This document shows, piece after piece, positions 43,489 to 63,764 of a DNA stretch of 64,000 nt. The stretch is taken from positions 13,211 through 77,210 of the forward strand of contig JAIXXV010000032.1 of the NCBI GenBank assembly GCA_027490575.1, given 5' to 3'. Source of the stretch: a bacterium. Its GTDB lineage: Bacteria > Patescibacteriota > Minisyncoccia > Phycocordibacterales > CAIZLB01. A model generated the notes under the pieces. The model ran no database searches. It was not told the origin of the DNA and saw nothing but the letters and a program-made list of their open reading frames with translations. The first letter of the stretch is position 1. Every line of letters starts with the position of its first letter. Both the position numbers and the translations under genes were made by a program.

Positions 43489-43926
43489 TCAGTCGAGGAA
43501 GCCATCTCTAGTAAATAGAGATGGCTTTCGATCTTTTAGGGCTGCTATTATAAGGTTCTTGATATTTTTAAAGTCTAGGTTTGAAATCCTACTTATATTA
43601 TTAACTTGCCTAAGAAATCTCTTTGAGCTCATCATCTTAATCTGTGATATCAGAACAGTATAAGGTTTATTATCAATGTGAATCCTGTAATCAAATATTC
43701 CGAGATTAGTTTTTGAGGACAAAGGTAAAACCCAAGCCATATTTTTGCTAAACTTCCTAAGGATTAATATCGGCCACTCAAAGTTTTGATTTTTTCCATC
43801 TTGTTCATGGCCAACATTCAAACCAATGGAAGACCACCAAATTTCTCTTTCTCTAAAAAAAATCAGGGAGTCATCTCTCTGATTAATTACTGACTTTAAA
43901 TCACCCCAATCTGAAAAATCCTTCAT
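43489..43926 (-). CDS. PemK/MazF-like toxin-fold protein, no adjacent antitoxin ORF
   Basis: REIWWSSIGLNVGHEQDGKNQNFEWPILIL resembles the MazF/PemK N-terminal beta core (GxIxW..fg.n.G.Eq.G..RP.lIl). TGA stop. The last ~13 codons run through hairpin 43499-43527. Confidence 0.55.
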   Translation of the reverse strand: MKDFSDWGDLKSVINQRDDSLIFFREREIWWSSIGLNVGHEQDGKNQNFEWPILILRKFSKNMAWVLPLSSKTNLGIFDYRIHIDNKPYTVLISQIKMMSSKRFLRQVNNISRISNLDFKNIKNLIIAALKDRKPSLFTRDGFLD

Positions 43927-44817: not shown

Positions 44818-46161
44818 TTAACCGATAATCCCCTTTTTCAACATGTTTTGTCTTTTGAATTCAGCAATTCTATTGTCGATACTTGGTTTGTTGTATTTGT
44901 AGAATGCATAACCAGCGATCGAACTCCACAGTATCATTGCCAATGTTATAACTATCATCTTTGGACCAAAGTCTATACCTGTTGCAGGTACTTGGTTTAG
45001 GAATACTCCAGATACAGGTACACCAGTTACAGGTGTTTGATCTCTGATAACTGTTACGTTAGAAGCTACAGTGTTTGCAAAGATGGTTGTAGCACAAGTA
45101 GCGCTTACACTTTGACCATTTACAAATGCAGTAACACTCGCTGTCTTGTATCCAGGTATGTTGTAAGATCTAGTTAACTGAGCAGAATTTCCGAAAAGTC
45201 CATCAGTTCCTGACCAGTTGTATGAAGTTGCACCCCAGATATTTCCATTTACATACATAGTCCATGTAACGTTTTGGTTTATGAATGCAGTTGCAGGTGT
45301 AGCTACACAGTAAGCTCCGATAGGATTTACAGGTGGTACATAAGTGTCTTGTATAAGAACATTACATGATCTAGTGATTGATTGATTACCAGATGTGATA
45401 GTTACATAAGCTGTCTTGTATCCAAGTGATGCAAATCTTCCCGTAAATGATTGACCTGATGCACTTATACCATCACTTCCTGACCATACGTATGTGTAGT
45501 TTCCAGAACCTCCAGAAGCAGTTGCCATGAAAGTTAGGTTTTGATTAACAAATGCAGTTGAAGGACTAATGATACAGTTACCATTTAGAGTAGGTTCGGA
45601 AGGAGTGTTTGTATTTGAACCACCGCCACCTAGTACAACTAGACTGATGTTGTTGTTGTTTACAGGGTTAAATGTGTTTGAGTTGTTGTTTGTTGCACTA
45701 GCTGTACTGTTGTTTGTGTTAGTGTTTGTATTTCTGTTGGTATTTGTGTTTGTATTAGTATTTGAAGTATATACATACGAAAGCTGAGGGGCAGGTGTAA
45801 ATCCAAAACCTCCTCCACCACCTACATTGTTGTAGACATATCTTTGAGCTGGGGCCGCAACGAATCCTCCACCTACACGGTTTTGAACAGGTTGTACGTA
45901 TCTTTGCGTAGGGGCTGAAAATACAGGGTTTGAATATGTTGTATTCAATCTATATCCTGAAGAAGGACTTGAGTATACAGGGTTAGAGTAAGTTGTATTC
46001 AATCTATACCCAGAACCCGTTGTTCCAACACCTGACAAGCCAGAGCTTGTTTTAGATGCAAAAGTAACTCCTGGAAACAGCGTCACAGAAGAGACCAAAA
46101 TGGCTAGAAATATGAATTTCCCCGCTTTTTGTAGACTTTTTATATTTGTAATTGTTTTCAT
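44818..46161 (-). CDS. Cell-surface protein: signal peptide, low-complexity Asn/Thr/Gly region, two PKD-like Ig domains, conserved C-terminal anchor module
   Basis: The repeat C-x-P-x-A-F-x-NQ...GSGNYTYVWSGSDG...GYKTAYVT occurs twice. The C-terminus is PVSGVFLNQVPATG + TM + KYNK...AEFKRQNMLKKG. Confidence 0.7.
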   Translation of the reverse strand: MKTITNIKSLQKAGKFIFLAILVSSVTLFPGVTFASKTSSGLSGVGTTGSGYRLNTTYSNPVYSSPSSGYRLNTTYSNPVFSAPTQRYVQPVQNRVGGGFVAAPAQRYVYNNVGGGGGFGFTPAPQLSYVYTSNTNTNTNTNRNTNTNTNNSTASATNNNSNTFNPVNNNNISLVVLGGGGSNTNTPSEPTLNGNCIISPSTAFVNQNLTFMATASGGSGNYTYVWSGSDGISASGQSFTGRFASLGYKTAYVTITSGNQSITRSCNVLIQDTYVPPVNPIGAYCVATPATAFINQNVTWTMYVNGNIWGATSYNWSGTDGLFGNSAQLTRSYNIPGYKTASVTAFVNGQSVSATCATTIFANTVASNVTVIRDQTPVTGVPVSGVFLNQVPATGIDFGPKMIVITLAMILWSSIAGYAFYKYNKPSIDNRIAEFKRQNMLKKGIIG

Positions 46162-46200
46162 AATGTCAAAACTATATATTATATTTAAATAAAGTCAAGT

Positions 46201-46229
46201 AAAAAGGCCGACGTCCTGGGACGCCGACC
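46201..46229 (-). terminator. Terminator of lipoprotein gene 46251-46781
   Basis: Minus strand: ggtcggcgtcc cagg acgtcggcc (with G-U pairs) followed by ttttt. Confidence 0.65.
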
Positions 46230-46250
46230 TTGTTGCTCTTTTTGTTTTTT

Positions 46251-46781
46251 TCACCTTCGTGCATCGGGAGGTGGTTGGTAGAGCGAACCAACCGTCCTGC
46301 CTGCCTGTGGAATCATCTGCGGAGGTCCATTTTGACCCTGAAGGTCACCGGGTGCGTAGATCATGCCAGTGGCATGATCCATGAACCATGGTTTGGAATC
46401 GTCCAGTGTCACCTTACTTTCGCGAGGAGCTCCGTGGGTCCTTTGGAACTCACGGAGTTGCTCGTCGTTGAAGTGATGGACGGTGCCGTCGTCCATAGTG
46501 ACGGTGTGTGTACGCGTAGCATAGCCGAGCAGACGTCTACCGTCTGGCATAGCCTGGCCGACATGATTGTCGGCTGAGCCTTGGACCACTTGTCCATGGC
46601 CCCACTGGTGATTTGGAGGTTGACCTCCGTTTTCTACAGTTTGACCATTGAATGCCATGGGCGCTTGACCCATAACCACCCCAGGTTGTTGGACAACTTG
46701 GCGCCGCTGTGGAACAGCAATGCAAGAGACGAAGCTGATCATGGTGACCAGTGCCAATACTAACAATTTCACTTTTTTCAT
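46251..46781 (-). CDS. G+C-rich secreted/lipoprotein-like orphan (Gln/Gly/Pro/His-rich)
   Basis: MKKVKLLVLALVTMISFVSC signal with a Cys at the end of the h-region. ATG 46781 is preferred. TGA stop. Confidence 0.5.
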   Translation of the reverse strand: MKKVKLLVLALVTMISFVSCIAVPQRRQVVQQPGVVMGQAPMAFNGQTVENGGQPPNHQWGHGQVVQGSADNHVGQAMPDGRRLLGYATRTHTVTMDDGTVHHFNDEQLREFQRTHGAPRESKVTLDDSKPWFMDHATGMIYAPGDLQGQNGPPQMIPQAGRTVGSLYQPPPDARR

Positions 46782-46975
46782 GATAATGAACGATTTTAGG
46801 GTTTGCTGAATGTACACTTTCGGTGCTTTACCGTGTGTAGTTGACTAGTATAATAGTATATTATGTCATATTTGTCAATAGTAATAATTGACTTTTATTA
46901 AAAATAGTGATATTAATATAAGCAGACAGATTCATTCTGAAATACCCTCAACCCAAAAATCCAAGACAAAACGAG

Positions 46976-47728
46976 ATGTCAGAAAACATGAAAAGCGCGT
47001 TCCTTACATACATCATGCTAGGTTTTACCAGCTTGATGGCCCAATACAACATCATAGTAGACGCAAGTCTGCAGATGGCCACCCTCTTCCAGGATGGCAA
47101 AATAGTTCAAGGTTTTGCCGAAATACCCATTGCCACCGGCATGCTAGGGCACGAGACCCCGGAGGGTACATGGAGTGTGCTGTCAGCTAAAGCCAGCGAC
47201 CGATCCAACAAATTTGGAGTGAATATGCCTTACTGCTTCAGAACCAACGCGATTGGTGGTGGTATCTGCATGCATGAAGGGCCGGTTTATCCAGGAGCAG
47301 CATCACACGGGTGCATTCGTATTCGTCACGACTTCGCCAAAAATCTTTTTGATAAAGTTGGCGATAACTGGAAATCTATGAAGATTGTAGTGGTTGGGTC
47401 AATTAAGGATTACATCAAGACAAGACTTGGTGGACTGGTGAGCTTTGACAAAGACGGTAGACCTGTAAAGTTTATCAGGGATTCGTCAGGTAGGCTTCCA
47501 GATGAGTTCCTAAAAGCTCTACATGACGGAAGAGTTACGCTCTTCTGCGAGAATAAAAGTGGTACGATTTCATTTGACCAAAATCAATGGTTCATATCGC
47601 TTGAATTTTGGCAAGACAAGAGGTTAAAAGGAGTGACTCTATCAGAGCTACAATCAAGATTTGGCCAAAGGGTTAACCTCACTGAGAACCAAATCAAAGA
47701 ACTTCACAGGAGAGTTGAAAGGTATTAG
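46976..47728 (+). CDS. L,D-transpeptidase (YkuD domain) protein
   Basis: Catalytic motif GICMHEGPVYPGAASHGCIRIRHDF (SHGCIR). N-terminal hydrophobic segment. Confidence 0.75.
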   Translation: MSENMKSAFLTYIMLGFTSLMAQYNIIVDASLQMATLFQDGKIVQGFAEIPIATGMLGHETPEGTWSVLSAKASDRSNKFGVNMPYCFRTNAIGGGICMHEGPVYPGAASHGCIRIRHDFAKNLFDKVGDNWKSMKIVVVGSIKDYIKTRLGGLVSFDKDGRPVKFIRDSSGRLPDEFLKALHDGRVTLFCENKSGTISFDQNQWFISLEFWQDKRLKGVTLSELQSRFGQRVNLTENQIKELHRRVERY

Positions 47729-47748
47729 TTACCAAATCAACCCTCAGA

Positions 47749-47778
47749 GGCGCCGCCCAAAAGGTGGCGCTTTTTTTA
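47749..47778 (+). terminator. Terminator of the L,D-transpeptidase gene
   Basis: ggcgccgcc caaaa ggtggcgc followed by ttttttt. Confidence 0.7.
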
Positions 47779-47903
47779 ATGCACTGATTTTTATCTCGTA
47801 CGATTTATATAAAAAACCTATTGATAAATATAAAAAACCGCCCACTCCACGAATGGAGCAGACGGGCTTTGAGGGTATCTAAAGTCCTCACACCTAGAGA
47901 CAA

Positions 47904-48356
47904 CTACCAGAACCCTGGCTGGCACCCGCCACCAATACCACTACGGTCTGGATTCTGGTTGTAGATGTACTGCAGCTGGCCATAAGGATTCTGTGACCCG
48001 ATATGCGGTATAGGTCCACCACCGTGTAGATAGATAGGGTGACCAGATCTGGAGAATCCTCCGAATACCTGACCGCCTCCCCATCCACCAAAGCCTTGGT
48101 TGAAACCTTGGTTGATCCAAGGGTCAGCACAAGCACCGACAGGTGCAAGGCCTACACCGTCAAAGACAGGAAACCCGTCATCACAGATGACTGCACCTCC
48201 TCCGAAGCCATCGTCTAGAACGAGACAACTCGGCAAAGCCAAGCTACACACCAAAGCCATCAAGACAAGCTTGATTGCCTTTAGGAAGCGCACTGACCGC
48301 GAGACCAAGGGTAGCCGAGCTCCAGTGACAACACAACTGACTGATTTGTTTTTCAT
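47904..48356 (-). CDS. Gly-rich secreted/lipoprotein-like orphan (150 aa)
   Basis: ATG 48356 is preceded by GAAAGGCGGG. The signal segment ends LALPSC. Gly/Phe/Asn/Gln-rich mature part. Confidence 0.5.
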   Translation of the reverse strand: MKNKSVSCVVTGARLPLVSRSVRFLKAIKLVLMALVCSLALPSCLVLDDGFGGGAVICDDGFPVFDGVGLAPVGACADPWINQGFNQGFGGWGGGQVFGGFSRSGHPIYLHGGGPIPHIGSQNPYGQLQYIYNQNPDRSGIGGGCQPGFW

Positions 48357-48581
48357 ACTGACAACCCGCCTTTCAACCGGGTTCGAGCAAGGTTTTTTAG
48401 ACCCACTCTTTTGGTTTGGTTTTTGATTTCGATTTGATACCAATGTCTGACATTTTCACGCCAAATAAAGTTGGTATATTTCAAGCGAACACTGCCCCTA
48501 AAGAAGAATGCTCGTAACTAACCTGTAAAAATATTGCATTAGTTGAGACTAACTGTCAACCCCAACTTAGCCTGACACCGA

Positions 48582-48863
48582 TTATTTAAAACCGCCCATC
48601 ACAGCACCCTCCTCTTTCAATATCTCAATCTTCTTTTCCTTTCCCCTATTGTACCCGCCCGCCTTACCATCCGACCTGACAACTCTATGACACGGTACAG
48701 CAGTATTGTAGTTTTTGTTTAATATATTTCCCACAGCACGAAAAGCATTTGGACTTCCAGCACGAAGAGCCACCTCTTTATAAGTCAAAGTCTTGCCTTT
48801 TGGTATGGACCTGACAGCATCGTATACGCTTTCAGAAAAAGTTTTTATTGTTTGAGACTTCAT
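48582..48863 (-). CDS. ogt: Methylated-DNA--protein-cysteine methyltransferase (MGMT/Ogt DNA-binding domain protein)
   Basis: Active-site PCHRVV. 93 aa. Confidence 0.8.
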   Translation of the reverse strand: MKSQTIKTFSESVYDAVRSIPKGKTLTYKEVALRAGSPNAFRAVGNILNKNYNTAVPCHRVVRSDGKAGGYNRGKEKKIEILKEEGAVMGGFK

Positions 48864-48979
48864 CGTTATTATTTTTTATAAAATTATCTCATTGTTTCGC
48901 GAGGGTTTGGCACAGCCCGCCCTTTTTTCTCTCACATACAGTCATCCTTTTTTTCTTTCGCCTTTTTTCTTTCGCTCAT

Positions 48980-49726
48980 TTACCCCCTAGTCCCAACATA
49001 ATCCGCCTCCACCACATATCTATCATTCTTTGTTCCAAAACTATCACATGTCGATATGGTTAGCATATTTCTTGTTGTATCAAACTTTATCAAAGCTTCG
49101 TTTTTGTCTACCTTATTAACACTTTTTACTTTGTATACAAAAGTAGTACTACCTGATTGCAAAAGTATCTCGTCGCCAGCTCTCACTTTGTGGAGCTCAT
49201 TGAAAACCCTATATGCTTGGTTTTGCACAACTCTAAAACCAGTACTATGCCCGAAGATAAACATATTACCTTTTCCTATAGACCCTGATCCAGGATATCG
49301 CACAGCTCCCTTTTTAAGCTCATTATCAAGTACGGTAATACTAGTTGAGCTAGGATTTTTTACTATAGTGTTTATATCAAGTGAAGGTACTATCAATCTA
49401 TCTGGCACAATGATTTTTCCGTCACCAATACCTGGGCCACTTGTTCCACCAGAACTATTGGCGTCTGAAGATTGAGCAGATGGATTTGTTGAGTTTAGTA
49501 TTCCCAAGGCTGAATGACCCGGTCTATCACCCGCCAAAGGCTCCTGTCCTGAAGTAGGATTATTGAAAAGAGTGTCTACGATGCCGCCATCGGAGCTTTG
49601 TCTAAGTTCACTCGGCAATAAGCCTGTGACAGCCAATAACAAAGCCGATCCTAAAAATACCATGGCAAAAAAACCGATAAATCGGACCTCATTAGTTGAA
49701 AATATATTTTTGAACCATTTTTCCAT
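48980..49726 (-). CDS. Sortase-family transpeptidase
   Basis: N-terminal TM, conserved His (IFGHSTGF), catalytic Cys in LTISTCD and a downstream Arg. ATG 49726 is preferred over the track start at 49804. Confidence 0.8.
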   Translation of the reverse strand: MEKWFKNIFSTNEVRFIGFFAMVFLGSALLLAVTGLLPSELRQSSDGGIVDTLFNNPTSGQEPLAGDRPGHSALGILNSTNPSAQSSDANSSGGTSGPGIGDGKIIVPDRLIVPSLDINTIVKNPSSTSITVLDNELKKGAVRYPGSGSIGKGNMFIFGHSTGFRVVQNQAYRVFNELHKVRAGDEILLQSGSTTFVYKVKSVNKVDKNEALIKFDTTRNMLTISTCDSFGTKNDRYVVEADYVGTRG

Positions 49727-49873: not shown

Positions 49874-51127
49874 ATGAAAAACTTTATTAAAATCATTATC
49901 ATAGTAGCAATACTGGTTATACTGGTATTTCTAAGTGTTGGTATAGTGCGTATTGTACCTAGAGTAGTGTCTTCCCTAGCCTCAGCTACGGTGTCACTTG
50001 GCTCATTTTTTACTGGTGGTTCAGACAGCAATGCCACTTCAACTTCAAGTAGTGGTAACAGTACTAACAATAATGGTACTCAAACATCTACATCTACAAG
50101 TGGAAATGGTTTTGTAGTGATTAATGGAACATCAACAAATTCTAGCAATGAAGATGATAGATCATTGGTCAATATACTTAGACCAAACAATACTTCAGGG
50201 CAACCTACTCAAGGTTCAAACAATTCAAACACTTCGAATGTAAAGAACTCTGTAAACAATTCTGCAAACGCAGGTACAGGCAACGTCTCTTATGTTGCAA
50301 ATACATGTACTAACGGTCGTGTATCTGATCTTGCCGTGAGAGTGCTTTCTCGTGGTGTTATGAACAAGGCTACAGGTCAATACATAGAGACCAACTCATT
50401 TACATCAGCTGACACTGTCATCGTAAAGTTTATAGCTGAAAACAGAGGAAGCTGTCCTACGGGCACATGGAGTCTAAGAGTAGACATGCCATCACAAAAC
50501 ACAGCTGATAGAGTTAGAAATATAGTAAACGTAGCTAGTCTTCCTGCTGGTTCTACAGTAACAGGTGAAGTTAACTTCACTACACCTGTAGTTGGAAATT
50601 CAAATGTAACTCTAACAGTAACTGATAACTCAGGTAGAGATTCAAATCTTTCAAACAATACAGTACCGACTTCGATTACGACTATTGCTACTAACACAGG
50701 TACAAATCCTGGAACACCTATCACAGGTGATGGAAGACCTGACCTGGCAGTGCGAATACTTAGAATGGGTACACTTGGATTCAATAACCAATTCGTCCCT
50801 ATCGCAAATACTTCATCTAACTTCGGCGGTAACTTCAGAGTTGGTGAAAGAGTTGCAGTACAATTTGAAGTCATTAACCAAGGACAAACACCTACTGGTG
50901 CATGGACATGGAGAGCTGACTCTGTAGCATTTCAAAATGGAAGCTATACAAACAATCAGTATGAAAATTCAATCCCTGCAGGAGGCAGACTTGTATACAC
51001 TATTGGATTTGATAGTCAGACTATAGGTACAAACAATATCTCTGTCACAGCAGATCATTTGAACCAAGTAAATGAGTTCAATGAATCAAACAATATCGCT
51101 GGTGTTAGTTTCAATGTTGGATACTAA
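49874..51127 (+). CDS. Secreted protein with two CARDB-like domains
   Basis: N-terminal TM/signal and an S/T/N-rich linker. Two units begin with DLAVRxL and the second ends with NEFNESNN (CARDB-type). Confidence 0.6.
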   Translation: MKNFIKIIIIVAILVILVFLSVGIVRIVPRVVSSLASATVSLGSFFTGGSDSNATSTSSSGNSTNNNGTQTSTSTSGNGFVVINGTSTNSSNEDDRSLVNILRPNNTSGQPTQGSNNSNTSNVKNSVNNSANAGTGNVSYVANTCTNGRVSDLAVRVLSRGVMNKATGQYIETNSFTSADTVIVKFIAENRGSCPTGTWSLRVDMPSQNTADRVRNIVNVASLPAGSTVTGEVNFTTPVVGNSNVTLTVTDNSGRDSNLSNNTVPTSITTIATNTGTNPGTPITGDGRPDLAVRILRMGTLGFNNQFVPIANTSSNFGGNFRVGERVAVQFEVINQGQTPTGAWTWRADSVAFQNGSYTNNQYENSIPAGGRLVYTIGFDSQTIGTNNISVTADHLNQVNEFNESNNIAGVSFNVGY

Positions 51128-61102: not shown

Positions 61103-61144
61103 CAGATAACAGTTGGTAATTATCAGGTGACAGTTAGCAGTTAG
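61103..61144 (+). repeat. 7-nt periodic spacer, CAGNTNN class (6 heptads) overlapping the helicase stop codon
   Basis: cagataa cagttgg taattat caggtga cagttag cagttag. Confidence 0.7.
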
Positions 61145-62610
61145 GTGCTTATCAAAAAATCAACAACTCTCTGGTCTACTTGTATATCTCTTCTCGTTAT
61201 AGGTTTGGTGAGCTGAATCCCCTCGAGACTTCTAACGCGACTTAGCGCCACATAAGCTTGTCCATGTGCAAAAGTCCCCTTTCCAAAATCTATGATTGCA
61301 TTATCGAACGTTTTACCTTGACTCTTGTGTATAGTAACTGCCCAAGCAAGTTTTACCGGTATTTGTATGTACTTTCCAACAACCTCAGAAGAAACTCTGT
61401 TTTGCTTTGAGTCAAATTCATATCTAACTGATTCCCAACTTTCACTTTCAACTTCCTCGGTCTTGCCATTACGAAGTTGTACATTGATGGAAGTTGAGTT
61501 TAGCTTTTTTACAATACCAAGATCTCCATTGACCCATCTGCCCATAGGATCATTTCTAAGCATCATGACTTGTGCGCCAACTTTCAGCACCAGAGCTTCA
61601 GGCGCTGGTGTAGTTTTTCTATCAAAAGCTCCTTGTACATGACCTTTGTATGTTTTAGCGGCACCATATATTTCAGTTAGCTTTTTGTTATTGATTACCT
61701 CAGCTGATGCATTGGTAGAAACTAGATATATGGCATCACTTGGCATTTTTTTCTTTTTATTTAAACTGCTTTTGCCTGCATTTTTTGAATGAGCGCCAGA
61801 CTTAGTTTTTCCACCAATCCCCTCACTACTATCATTGTCCATATCAATCACTAGCTCATAATCACCTCCGAATTGATAGTCAGACTCTGATTGAAATCCA
61901 CCTGAATCTGACACGGAGTCTTGATTGAAATTTTGTGAAAAATCTAGACAGCACACTGAATTGATTTTATAAAGATCATTTTCATCCATACGACCTGTAC
62001 GAATCCTATCAAGGATAGAGACGAACTCAGTATCACTTTGTCTATAAACTTCTGTAAGCTCAGCTATCTGGAAATTGCCCTTGGGATATGACTTTGAATC
62101 AAAAAAGTATGGGCTCTGATAATGATCTATGAAGACGTACTGTTCATGTGGAGCAACTACCGGAGGCAACTGAAACATGTCTCCAATAGCCACCATTTGT
62201 ACACCACCAAAAAACTCACCAGGCTTTGGACCGTTGAGTCTAAGGAATCTCTCAACACAATCAAAAAGATCTGCACGGACCATAGATATTTCATCTATTA
62301 CAAGTGTGTCTAGCTTTTTGTAAAGCTTAGATAAGGTCTCATCTGAGATAATGCTTATATCTCTATCTATCACACCTATCTTAAACTTAAAGAAGCTGTG
62401 TATGGTCTGACCTTTGATATTTAGTGCTGCTATGCCTGTGGGTGCAACTACGGCTATGTTTTTCTTGGTGGTATCTCGAAAATGTTGCAGCAAAGTAGAT
62501 TTACCAGTACCAGCTCTACCAGTAATGAATATGTTTTGGCTAGAATTTTCAAGCAAATCTAATATATCTTTTGACTCGTCAGATAATTTCATATCTGAAT
62601 AATACTCCAA
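61141..62610 (-). CDS. PIF1/RecD-like superfamily 1 DNA helicase
   Basis: Walker A ITGRAGTGKSTLL, Walker B VIDEISMV, and a C-terminal WAVTIHKSQGKTF motif. A low-complexity insertion lies in the middle. Confidence 0.8.
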   Translation of the reverse strand: MEYYSDMKLSDESKDILDLLENSSQNIFITGRAGTGKSTLLQHFRDTTKKNIAVVAPTGIAALNIKGQTIHSFFKFKIGVIDRDISIISDETLSKLYKKLDTLVIDEISMVRADLFDCVERFLRLNGPKPGEFFGGVQMVAIGDMFQLPPVVAPHEQYVFIDHYQSPYFFDSKSYPKGNFQIAELTEVYRQSDTEFVSILDRIRTGRMDENDLYKINSVCCLDFSQNFNQDSVSDSGGFQSESDYQFGGDYELVIDMDNDSSEGIGGKTKSGAHSKNAGKSSLNKKKKMPSDAIYLVSTNASAEVINNKKLTEIYGAAKTYKGHVQGAFDRKTTPAPEALVLKVGAQVMMLRNDPMGRWVNGDLGIVKKLNSTSINVQLRNGKTEEVESESWESVRYEFDSKQNRVSSEVVGKYIQIPVKLAWAVTIHKSQGKTFDNAIIDFGKGTFAHGQAYVALSRVRSLEGIQLTKPITRRDIQVDQRVVDFLIST

Positions 62611-62615
62611 TCAAT

Positions 62616-63764
62616 CTAACCCTGCATCTTCTTTTTTGTCTTTTGTTGTTGCATTAGTTTAAATGCAGTAGCTATGTCTGAAACAGAGGCTTGTGCATTG
62701 GCACTAGATGATACAGTTGACGCATCAGACGCATTTGAGAAAGACACGAGTCTCTGATTTCCAAATGAGTAATATTTATGGAATACAAGTGCACCCAGTA
62801 AACTACTTAGCATTAAGCCCGTAAGCAAGATTGCGCTTTTTACGCCAGGAGTTACTCCTGTTGCAGGAACTTGGTTTAGGAATACACCCGAGACCGGCTG
62901 TCCAGAAACACCAGAAGTGTACTGGTACGTAGGTTGAACATAAGTATAAGTAGTCGGTTGTGTATATACAGGTTGTGTATATGTTTGTTGGTAGTTGTAG
63001 TCGTAAGGATAATAGTATTGATTTGGATTTTGATATTGCCAATTCCAAGTTTGATTTTGCCAAGTATTGTTCCAACTACTATTATTCCAGCCATTATTCC
63101 ATGTATTGTTCCAATTATTATTCCAGTTGTTATTTGTTCCATAACCAACTTGTACAAATAAACTTGCACAAGAAGTATTATTAAATGATGAGCAAATTGT
63201 GTAAGACATTGTACCTAATTGATTACCTGTAACTGTTATCTGGCTACCACTTATATAAGCACTAGCAATACTTGAGTTATTGTTATTTGAAATAAAATAT
63301 CCTCCGCCAGTACCTGAGATATTTACAGATTGAGTTTGCCCCACATTCAGAGTAAGACTTGTCTGACTTAAGCTTATGGTTTGATTATTCCATGTTCCAC
63401 CTGTCACATTGACCTGAAGCGTTGCACAAGGAGCCATAGACGCTTGCGAACATATAGTTAGACTTGATGTTCCTTGAGATAGACCTTGAACTTGCACTAG
63501 TCCACTTGATGATCCTGCACTTACCACGGTACTGTTTGAGTTTGCTGATACGTAGTAGTTACCTGATCCACCTGACACATTTACAGTAACTGTTTGACCT
63601 GAGTTTATATTTATAAATGACTGACTAAGATATATTGGTCCGTAGTAAGGGGTTGACTGTGCACTAGCAAAACCACCTGGCACCAAAAAAGATAGTGCAG
63701 ATAGGCATACTGAAACTGCGAAAATGGTGCTTTTTATAGCTATTTTTTTAGATATATTTGTCAT
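62616..63764 (-). CDS. Cell-surface protein: signal peptide, two Ig-like repeats, Trp/Asn- and Tyr/Gln/Thr-rich tract, and the same C-terminal anchor module as 44818-46161
   Basis: Repeats ...GQTVTVNVSGGSGNYYVSANSN... and ...GQTQSVNISGTGGGYFISNNNN... WNNNWNNTWNNGWNN tract. C-terminus PVSGVFLNQVPATG + TM + HKYY...AFKLMQQQKTKKKMQG. Confidence 0.65.
   Translation of the reverse strand: MTNISKKIAIKSTIFAVSVCLSALSFLVPGGFASAQSTPYYGPIYLSQSFININSGQTVTVNVSGGSGNYYVSANSNSTVVSAGSSSGLVQVQGLSQGTSSLTICSQASMAPCATLQVNVTGGTWNNQTISLSQTSLTLNVGQTQSVNISGTGGGYFISNNNNSSIASAYISGSQITVTGNQLGTMSYTICSSFNNTSCASLFVQVGYGTNNNWNNNWNNTWNNGWNNSSWNNTWQNQTWNWQYQNPNQYYYPYDYNYQQTYTQPVYTQPTTYTYVQPTYQYTSGVSGQPVSGVFLNQVPATGVTPGVKSAILLTGLMLSSLLGALVFHKYYSFGNQRLVSFSNASDASTVSSSANAQASVSDIATAFKLMQQQKTKKKMQG

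Follow-up and report, generated by a model that had tools for sequence, protein, structure and literature searches.

Genes of the sortase locus

The 64-kb window analysed here (contig JAIXXV010000032.1 of the patescibacterial assembly GCA_027490575.1, positions 13,211 to 77,210) encodes one sortase and two surface proteins, A and B, which end in the same C-terminal module and are probably its substrates. The window is an ordinary stretch of chromosome with a GC content of 39.8%, carrying genes for S1, FtsA, FtsZ, aminoacyl-tRNA synthetases, TsaD, RNase R, SMC and GyrB. The relatives found are all metagenome-assembled Patescibacteria (CPR, for Candidate Phyla Radiation); their informative labels are mostly Paceibacterota, Parcubacteria and Taylorbacteria. 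Some relatives are labelled 'Saccharibacteria', yet their neighbouring genes are near-identical to those of Paceibacterota-labelled relatives. Paceibacteria and their relatives are abundant, almost wholly uncultivated and thought to be attached to other cells, and the proteins that they display covalently on their surface are essentially unknown.

Proteins A and B each consist of an N-terminal hydrophobic segment, a passenger region and the C-terminal module. The N-terminal segment spans residues 13–36 in A (ending ..TFA) and residues 8–35 in B (ending ..ASA), and was called as a signal peptide by inspection. Each protein contains one C-terminal transmembrane (TM) segment, which lies within the module between an extended sorting motif and a cytoplasmic tail (Table 1). 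When A is compared with B by BLASTP a single significant segment is obtained, the C-terminal 46 residues (50% identity, E 9e-11), and within it a stretch of 14 identical residues, PVSGVFLNQVPATG. Apart from this segment the passengers are unrelated. An earlier note on this DNA, made from the letters alone, had described a conserved C-terminal module on two proteins that differ elsewhere, and both parts of that description hold. The tails of A (IAEFKRQNMLKKG) and B (ATAFKLMQQQKTKKK) show weak similarity as a pair, which is real at the level of the family. The window holds the module exactly twice and a single sortase, as judged by a six-frame regular-expression search and the family hidden Markov model (HMM), which scores A at E 1e-24 and B at E 1e-20.

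The earlier note had also observed that about 40 nucleotides encoding the motif are nearly identical in the two genes. The similarity exists (36 of 42 nucleotides), with boundaries a few nucleotides away from those first given. Identical codons are used at 8 of the 14 positions, compared with 5.2 expected from the codon usage of the window, and the DNA similarity is explained by protein identity together with codon bias rather than by a separate feature at the DNA level. A DNA-level element or gene conversion as its source was rejected on this count.

The passenger of A has homologues in 46 of 80 sortase-centred loci (described below), and A is the conserved sortase-linked orthologue. At the Pfam threshold B has a match to the beta domain named 'pilus formation protein N-terminal'. 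Both passengers contain low-complexity stretches, at 45700–45760 in A (NTNTNTNTNRNTNTNTNN) and at about 62990–63120 in B (WNNNWNNTWNNGWNNSSWNNTWQNQTWNW, followed by Y/Q/T/P repeats), which are probably spacers or stalks between the immunoglobulin (Ig)-like domains and the sorting signal. A 489-residue open reading frame (ORF; 61141–62610, minus strand) starts 5 nucleotides downstream of B on the same strand and may be co-transcribed with it; by eye it has a P-loop (GRAGTGKS) and a helicase-like look.

Table 1. Features of the sortase locus, of the two module proteins and of the module family
Feature	Position	Strand	Description
Surface protein A	44818-46161	-	447 residues; signal peptide, N/T-rich low-complexity region, two PKD-like Ig domains, C-terminal module
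Extended sorting motif of A, PVSGVFLNQVPATG	44977-45018	-	Residues 382-395
TM helix of A module, KMIVITLAMILWSSIAGYAFY	44899-44961	-	K401-Y421; carries the conserved K and WS of the family
Cytoplasmic tail of A	44821-44898	-	Residues 422-447; basic KYNK, short linker, terminal motif
Terminal tail motif of A, RIAEFKRQNMLKKGIIG	44821-44871	-	
Lipoprotein-like ORFs	46251-46817, 47904-48443	-	G-, P- and Q-rich; lipobox-like sequences ..SFVSC and ..LPSC
YkuD L,D-transpeptidase	46976-47728	+	Between sortase and A; Pfam 5.4e-14
Sortase	48980-49726	-	248 residues from ATG at 49726; cytoplasmic stub, TM helix about 16-37, LPSEL, linker, catalytic domain
CARDB-like surface protein	49874-51127	+	Divergent from sortase; N-terminal anchor, N/S/T-rich linker; Pfam CARDB 1.8e-5
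Surface protein B	62616-63764	-	382 residues; signal peptide, Ig-like/pilus-N-like beta domains, W/N/Y/Q-rich low-complexity region, C-terminal module
Extended sorting motif of B, PVSGVFLNQVPATG	62856-62897	-	Residues 290-303
TM helix of B module	62781-62840	-	K309-F328
Cytoplasmic tail of B	62619-62780	-	54 residues; S/A-rich linker and terminal motif; P0001 is an orthologue with the same tail
Terminal tail motif of B, DIATAFKLMQQQKTKKKMQG	62619-62678	-	
Module-type motif peptides			GVFLNQVPATGID; AVYLSQVPYTGVE
Alternative tail domain of about 70 residues	Outside window		LE..ARE.NVLIS.DGLE.I...AE..L..LI.K....W.TLN.EKI; loci L026, L037, L041, L053, L109, L116, L118, L119, L140; proteins P0012, P0059, P0060, P0078

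Conservation of the C-terminal module

The module belongs to a family that extends well beyond the window. A profile (A2) made from the motif and TM helix of A and B was used for an exhaustive HMM search of 1.84 billion representative proteins, a search of the kind that the earlier note had proposed. It returned 85 protein clusters at E ≤ 1e-3, 15 of them at E ≤ 1e-10, and the match is C-terminal in every case. A word-index homologue search with the 80-residue module of A gave no match, and a homologue search with an alignment of 63 modules gave only 6. A degenerate DNA pattern representing the motif and the K and W of the helix was searched against 185,579 GTDB species genomes, one per species. 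This identified 59 loci, all from Patescibacteria and all genuine module ORFs once translated, and at least ten GTDB genomes hold two module loci each. The clusters and the 59 loci show the same architecture at 30–50% module identity.

The family consensus opens with [VI][YF]L[SN]Q[VI]P[AY]TG, the extended motif, and continues, after about 5 residues, with a K..LF..GL..WS TM helix, a K/R cluster, a variable linker and a terminal [IL]E.FK..N[ML].KKG motif. The consensus of the 63 aligned modules is ..GTPVSGV[FY]L[SN]Q[VI]P[A/Y/D/S]TG-I.F.LK..LF.LGL.LWS.F.AY....K.K-(variable linker)-IE.FK..N..KKG... Within this alignment G8, L11, P15, T17 and G18 are invariant, as are F58 and K59, the invariance of this last pair being partly a product of selection by a regular expression that required an [FL]K tail motif. 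K24, L27, G31, W35 and S36 are near-invariant, and an N and a KKG-like end are common in the tail. When the modules from all sources are pooled (147 unique sequences) Pro at P3, Thr at P1 and Gly at P1' are invariant, P4 is V in 63%, I in 24% and L in 11%, and A or Y predominates at P2. In the set gathered by way of the sortase, which is less biased, the invariant core is [VI]-[YF]-L-[SN]-Q-[VI]-P-[YA]-T-G, and a basic pair follows the TM helix in 28 of 32 members.

The passengers of the family carry surface domains, with PKD in 32 of the 59 loci together with Big_2, SprB and SpaA-like domains. Neither Pfam nor NCBIfam has a model for the module. The LPXTG anchor models PF00746 and TIGR01167 match neither A nor B (E ≤ 0.1/1); among the 63 modules PF00746 (Gram_pos_anchor) is weakly matched by four, with a best E of 0.003, and TIGR01167 by none. 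In a literature search with the motif strings, and with sortase combined with CPR taxa, no name or description turned up for the motif, for the module or for its pairing with a sortase.

The sortase

The gene reported as a sortase in the earlier note is indeed one, and the identical 248-residue protein is already on record. It matches the Pfam Sortase family (PF04203) with an E of 2e-21 (76.4 bits, cutoff 26.6) and TIGR01076 with 41.6 bits (cutoff 39.35). The bit scores for the NCBIfam class models lie below their cutoffs for class D (41.8/165), E (35.7/160), C (32.2/160), F (19.1/166) and GN (22.5/158), and no cutoff among classes A–F and GN is reached. A sortase family is encoded by more than half of CPR genomes (PMC6744442).

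The protein is anchored at its N-terminus only and has no C-terminal TM segment. Its N-terminal helix contains the near-invariant residues F16, F20, F24, L31 and G35, which are followed by P38 in a juxtamembrane LPSE[LF] motif, and a low-complexity linker joins this motif to the catalytic domain. The catalytic residues H160 (in FGHS), C227 (in TISTC) and R236 (in RYVV) are invariant in 73 homologues. An AlphaFold2 (AF2) model based on these 73 homologues has a predicted local distance difference test (pLDDT) score above 90 over the catalytic domain and adopts the eight-stranded β-barrel fold of sortases. Foldseek aligns the model to SrtA, SrtC, SrtD and SrtE structures with a probability of 1.00 and an E of about 1e-9. 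Assignment to a class by structure was rejected, the Foldseek scores for classes A, C, D and E being indistinguishable. The closest solved sequence in the PDB is that of B. anthracis SrtA (2kw8, E 3e-8). With intact catalytic motifs and a confidently predicted fold that matches solved sortases, the enzyme looks functional.

By helical arithmetic F16, F20, F24, L31 and G35 of the sortase fall on one face of the helix, and K24, L27, G31 and W35 of the substrate likewise fall on one face. These two conserved faces may form a possible helix–helix docking surface.

Linkage of the module to the sortase

Co-occurrence with this sortase, which the earlier note had suggested as a check, was examined from both directions. 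On the side of the module, a close homologue of the window sortase (E 1e-39 to 1e-91) is present in 20 of the 59 GTDB loci, taken as 8-kb blocks that were not centred on the module gene. In these 20 loci the sortase always lies upstream of the module gene on the same strand, and in 12 of them it is directly adjacent. On the side of the sortase, metagenome contigs scanned with a sortase alignment yielded 254 relatives, of which the best 80 were analysed. Where at least 2 kb of downstream sequence is available, a module gene is found downstream on the same strand in 33 of 36 loci. Two of the three exceptions belong to a sub-group that has about 2.2–2.4 kb between the sortase and the module gene, like this window, and the module gene was probably cut off. 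Among loci that contain a module, it lies downstream of the sortase in 39 of 40. The search for modules in genomes without a sortase was run in part and gave no counter-example among the loci examined.

The link between the sortase and the module is strong. The strictly directional pairing holds at 45–60% sortase identity, and the signal is also found on unlinked proteins such as B. An enzyme and its sorting signal would be expected to show this combination.

Neighbouring genes

In the window the sortase gene is followed by an MGMT-like gene, a small lipoprotein-like ORF, the YkuD L,D-transpeptidase gene, a small ORF and the gene for A. The same spaced arrangement from sortase to A is found in an 87%-identical relative on a 772-kb contig. 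A YkuD gene occupies this position only in the closest relatives. The two lipoprotein-like ORFs form local GC peaks of 0.50–0.55, compared with about 0.40 for the window, have no Pfam match, and have no homologues in the other loci beyond the nearest relatives. The divergently oriented CARDB-like protein has a homologue in 36 of the 80 sortase-centred loci and in 13 of the 59 module loci, and no sorting motif was found in it. A PemK/MazF-like toxin ORF with a weak Pfam match (43489–43926, minus strand) lies between the genes for ThrRS and uracil-DNA glycosylase.

The cytoplasmic tail

The tails of the family fall into three types. In about 74% of modules a linker of 10–40 residues, rich in A, S, G, T and N, is followed by the [IL]E.FK..N[ML].KKG motif, which ends 0–4 residues before the stop codon (the AFK tail). 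About 17% have only a short basic tail of the canonical, textbook-like kind, and in about 8% the AFK tail is replaced by a different helical domain of about 70 residues (Table 1). Among 60 substrates paired with a sortase the AFK tail is present in 33, the short tail in 18 and the alternative domain in 9, and the tail type tracks the sortase clades.

The earlier note had remarked that the long conserved tails are atypical and might mark a different anchoring or secretion module. This is half correct. In the sampled DNA the conserved tail does occur only on module proteins, and no Pfam or NCBIfam model describes it. However, the AFK tail is missing from about a quarter of modules, including many that are adjacent to a sortase, and it is therefore accessory to the sortase signal and not a requirement for it, nor does it speak for a system without sortase.

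All 51 occurrences of the terminal AFK motif in 1.25 Mb of Patescibacteria DNA, a sample biased towards these loci, are on module proteins, and its interpretation as a general C-terminal docking motif of other proteins was rejected on this basis. The idea of an amphipathic membrane-binding helix, as in MinD or FtsA, is unsupported (hydrophobic moment 0.06–0.21). Nor is the AFK tail a truncated form of the alternative domain (hhalign probability 0.3%). The profile of the alternative domain has no matching Pfam family; in the PDB it gives weak matches (E 0.002–0.016) to RFC subunits 5, 4 and 2, in their AAA+ lid region.

The N-terminal and TM region of the sortase co-varies with the tail type of the substrate. 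An F[LI]D[LI][VI]W..K[FY] pattern accompanies the alternative tail domain and an LF...E[VL].FI.WF pattern accompanies the AFK tail, as seen on comparing loci L006, L017, L035, L037 and L118 with L008, L009, L019, L027, L028 and others. Contact across the membrane is one possible reason for this co-variation, and shared phylogeny alone is another.

Proposed mechanism and alternatives

We consider it likely that the window encodes a dedicated sortase–substrate system of Paceibacteria-type Patescibacteria that uses an extended PxTG cell-wall sorting signal. A and B would be exported by Sec and retained in the membrane by the C-terminal TM helix and the K/R cluster. The membrane-anchored sortase would recognise the extended motif (of the VYLSQVPYTG type, VFLNQVPATG here) and its catalytic cysteine would cut between T and G, at a scissile bond predicted to be T394–G395 in A, leaving a thioester at the threonine. 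An amine acceptor, most probably a peptidoglycan precursor, would then receive the passenger, so that a PKD/Ig-type protein becomes covalently attached at the surface. The YkuD L,D-transpeptidase encoded in the same locus would at least be consistent with a peptidoglycan wall. The conserved TM faces (K..LF..G...WS of the substrate and the F16/F20/F24/L31/G35 face of the sortase) would probably dock within the membrane. The AFK tail may be a clade-specific accessory carried by the part that stays in the membrane after cleavage; the best guess is a short linear motif that docks a partner in the cytoplasm or the membrane, and it would act before cleavage, in positioning or retention, or afterwards, in sensing or clearing of the remnant.

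The earlier note had suggested VPATG as a variant sorting motif read by the nearby sortase, and this gains support from the linkage in both directions, from the invariant P, T and G at a fixed distance from a TM helix and basic cluster, and from the Ig/PKD passengers. The presence of two module genes for one sortase in the window, the intact catalytic motifs of the enzyme, the few weak PF00746 matches and the optional nature of the tail also speak for it. V or I at P4 is known from proven sortase substrates, namely RrgB (IPQTG) and RrgC (VPDTG) (PMC5640630).

Several observations weigh against this interpretation. In the window itself four unrelated genes (2.8 kb) separate the sortase from A, and the distance to B is 13 kb. 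At one sortase locus (L111) the 2.4 kb downstream hold other genes and no module gene. Sortase and module protein are also part of a conserved block, DnaE-ThrRS-[module protein]-sortase-CARDB protein-GyrB, and their adjacencies are therefore not independent events but partly lineage synteny. For the GTDB set, the search pattern itself accounts for part of the conservation of the helix K and W; among the 32 members of the sortase-centred set, which is less biased, K/R is found in 24 and W[SAT] in 19. Finally, the T–G cleavage site and the acceptor, like TM docking and the function of the tail, are predictions from sequence.

The best surviving alternative, which we regard as improbable, is that the module is an uncleaved, permanent type I membrane anchor. 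The PxTG segment would then be a conserved stalk, the TM helix and tail would couple the protein to a cytoplasmic partner, and the sortase would act elsewhere or trim only a fraction of the molecules. A discarded remnant is not expected to keep one near-invariant TM face and a conserved terminal motif, and on this point retention of the intact protein fits at least as well as cleavage. The confinement of the tail motif to module proteins (51/51) and the folded-looking 70-residue cytoplasmic domain of about 8% of members, which suggests a real cytoplasmic function, point in the same direction. However, the invariant P-x-T-G keeps a fixed distance to the TM helix, exactly as in sortase signals, and the gene pairing of sortase and substrate is tight and directional. 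The cytoplasmic part is dispensable in the 18 of 60 sortase-paired members that have only a short basic tail, and the window contains no other candidate substrate for its sortase.

A sortase-assembled pilus or fibre of the class C kind, in which module proteins would be joined to one another through a lysine side chain instead of to the wall, is quite improbable. In pilus loci the sortase gene typically lies immediately upstream of the substrate gene, and pilin signals typically have V or I at P4; in addition some of the sortase-adjacent members carry SpaA/prealbumin-like domains, and B has the pilus-N-like beta domain. Nevertheless, a pilin-like [WYF]PK[NDH] motif was found in 0 of 184 module proteins by a regular expression that divergent motifs would escape. 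Each locus examined has one sortase gene, whose product has an N-terminal anchor and no C-terminal TM segment and, in the window, scores 32 bits against the 160 of the class C model, and it has one substrate gene beside the sortase instead of several that encode tip, shaft and base pilins.

A similarity without function, due to chance, to composition or to recent copying of DNA within the genome (gene conversion), might be suggested by the presence of just two copies in the window, both in proteins rich in low-complexity sequence and with 36 of 42 motif nucleotides identical, but its likelihood is negligible given the BLASTP E of 9e-11, a codon identity only slightly above expectation, and an architecture shared by 85 clusters and 59 genome loci at 30–50% module identity, this family-wide conservation refuting it.

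To return to the sorting-signal interpretation, a bolder form of it would make the module a two-sided device, with the sortase signal on the outside and a tail on the inside (the [IL]E.FK..N[ML].KKG motif or, in other clades, the AAA+-lid-like domain of 70 residues) that docks the precursor or the remnant to a partner, so coupling surface anchoring to an intracellular process. This is possible but rather doubtful. If it were true, the tail might serve remnant sensing like that of the streptococcal C-peptide, clearance by a membrane protease, or targeting to a division or attachment site, and, taken with the TM docking faces, it would make the enzyme the type of a new sortase class, one that recognises its substrates on both sides of the membrane and within it. 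Independently of that proposal, the conserved membrane and cytoplasmic parts of the module raise the question of whether recognition by the sortase, or handling of the remnant, extends across the membrane. The motif is missed by current anchor models, and its use would allow the anchored surface proteome to be listed from metagenomes and candidate host-attachment proteins to be picked. A cognate pair of enzyme and motif might also be orthogonal to LPXTG for protein ligation.

Comparison with known systems

The closest general parallel is the LPXTG system of the class A housekeeping sortases (PF00746, TIGR01167). Both have substrates with an N-terminal signal peptide and a C-terminal [L/V/I]PxTG motif, hydrophobic helix and basic cluster, and in both a single Cys transpeptidase with a His-Cys-Arg triad, anchored in the membrane at its N-terminus, serves several substrates. 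Unlike the LPXTG signals, the module has V or I at P4 in 87% of cases, six further conserved upstream residues ([VI][YF]L[SN]Q) and near-invariant residues within the TM helix, and most members add 10–40 linker residues and a conserved terminal motif. Existing LPXTG models miss the module, and the enzyme is below every class cutoff.

With the class C pilin systems, exemplified by S. pneumoniae RrgB and RrgC, the Paceibacteria-type system shares V or I at P4 and an adjacent, co-oriented sortase gene. It differs from them in that no pilin motif was found in the module proteins, a single substrate stands beside a single sortase, and the enzyme has no C-terminal TM segment. The pilus of CPR bacteria described in a 2026 preprint is chaperone-usher-like and distinct from this sortase system.

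The class E (LAXTG) and class D/F sortases of Actinobacteria and Firmicutes are similar in being lineage-specific enzymes of the housekeeping type with an altered motif preference. Classes D and E give the best NCBIfam class scores and SrtE is among the top Foldseek matches, although 36–42 bits is far below the 160–165 bits of the cutoffs. The motif is different from theirs and, to our knowledge, the extended flank and the tail are absent from class E, D and F systems.

A precedent for a membrane remnant with a function of its own after sortase cleavage comes from Streptococcus gordonii, where the C-peptide of the LPXTG signal is reported to be sensed by a two-component kinase (PMC11326707). 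No sensor partner is identified here, and no conserved cytoplasmic motif is described for the C-peptide; the comparison is one of analogy only.

The arrangement is also reminiscent of the tripartite C-terminal sorting domains that Haft and colleagues found in silico, namely PEP-CTERM/exosortase, PGF-CTERM/archaeosortase, GlyGly-CTERM/rhombosortase and MYXO-CTERM/myxosortase. These likewise place a motif, a TM helix and a basic cluster at the extreme C-terminus, are restricted to particular lineages, have several substrates per dedicated enzyme, and can be recognised by co-occurrence of the partners. Their enzymes are polytopic intramembrane proteins unrelated to sortase, whereas the Patescibacteria system has a true sortase and a signal that extends well past the basic cluster. 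Judged by its motif and by its enzyme, the Patescibacteria system would appear to be a lineage-wide and uncatalogued variant of the Gram-positive LPXTG signal, served by a member of the sortase superfamily that scores below every class model and is predicted to act in the manner of the LPXTG sortases.

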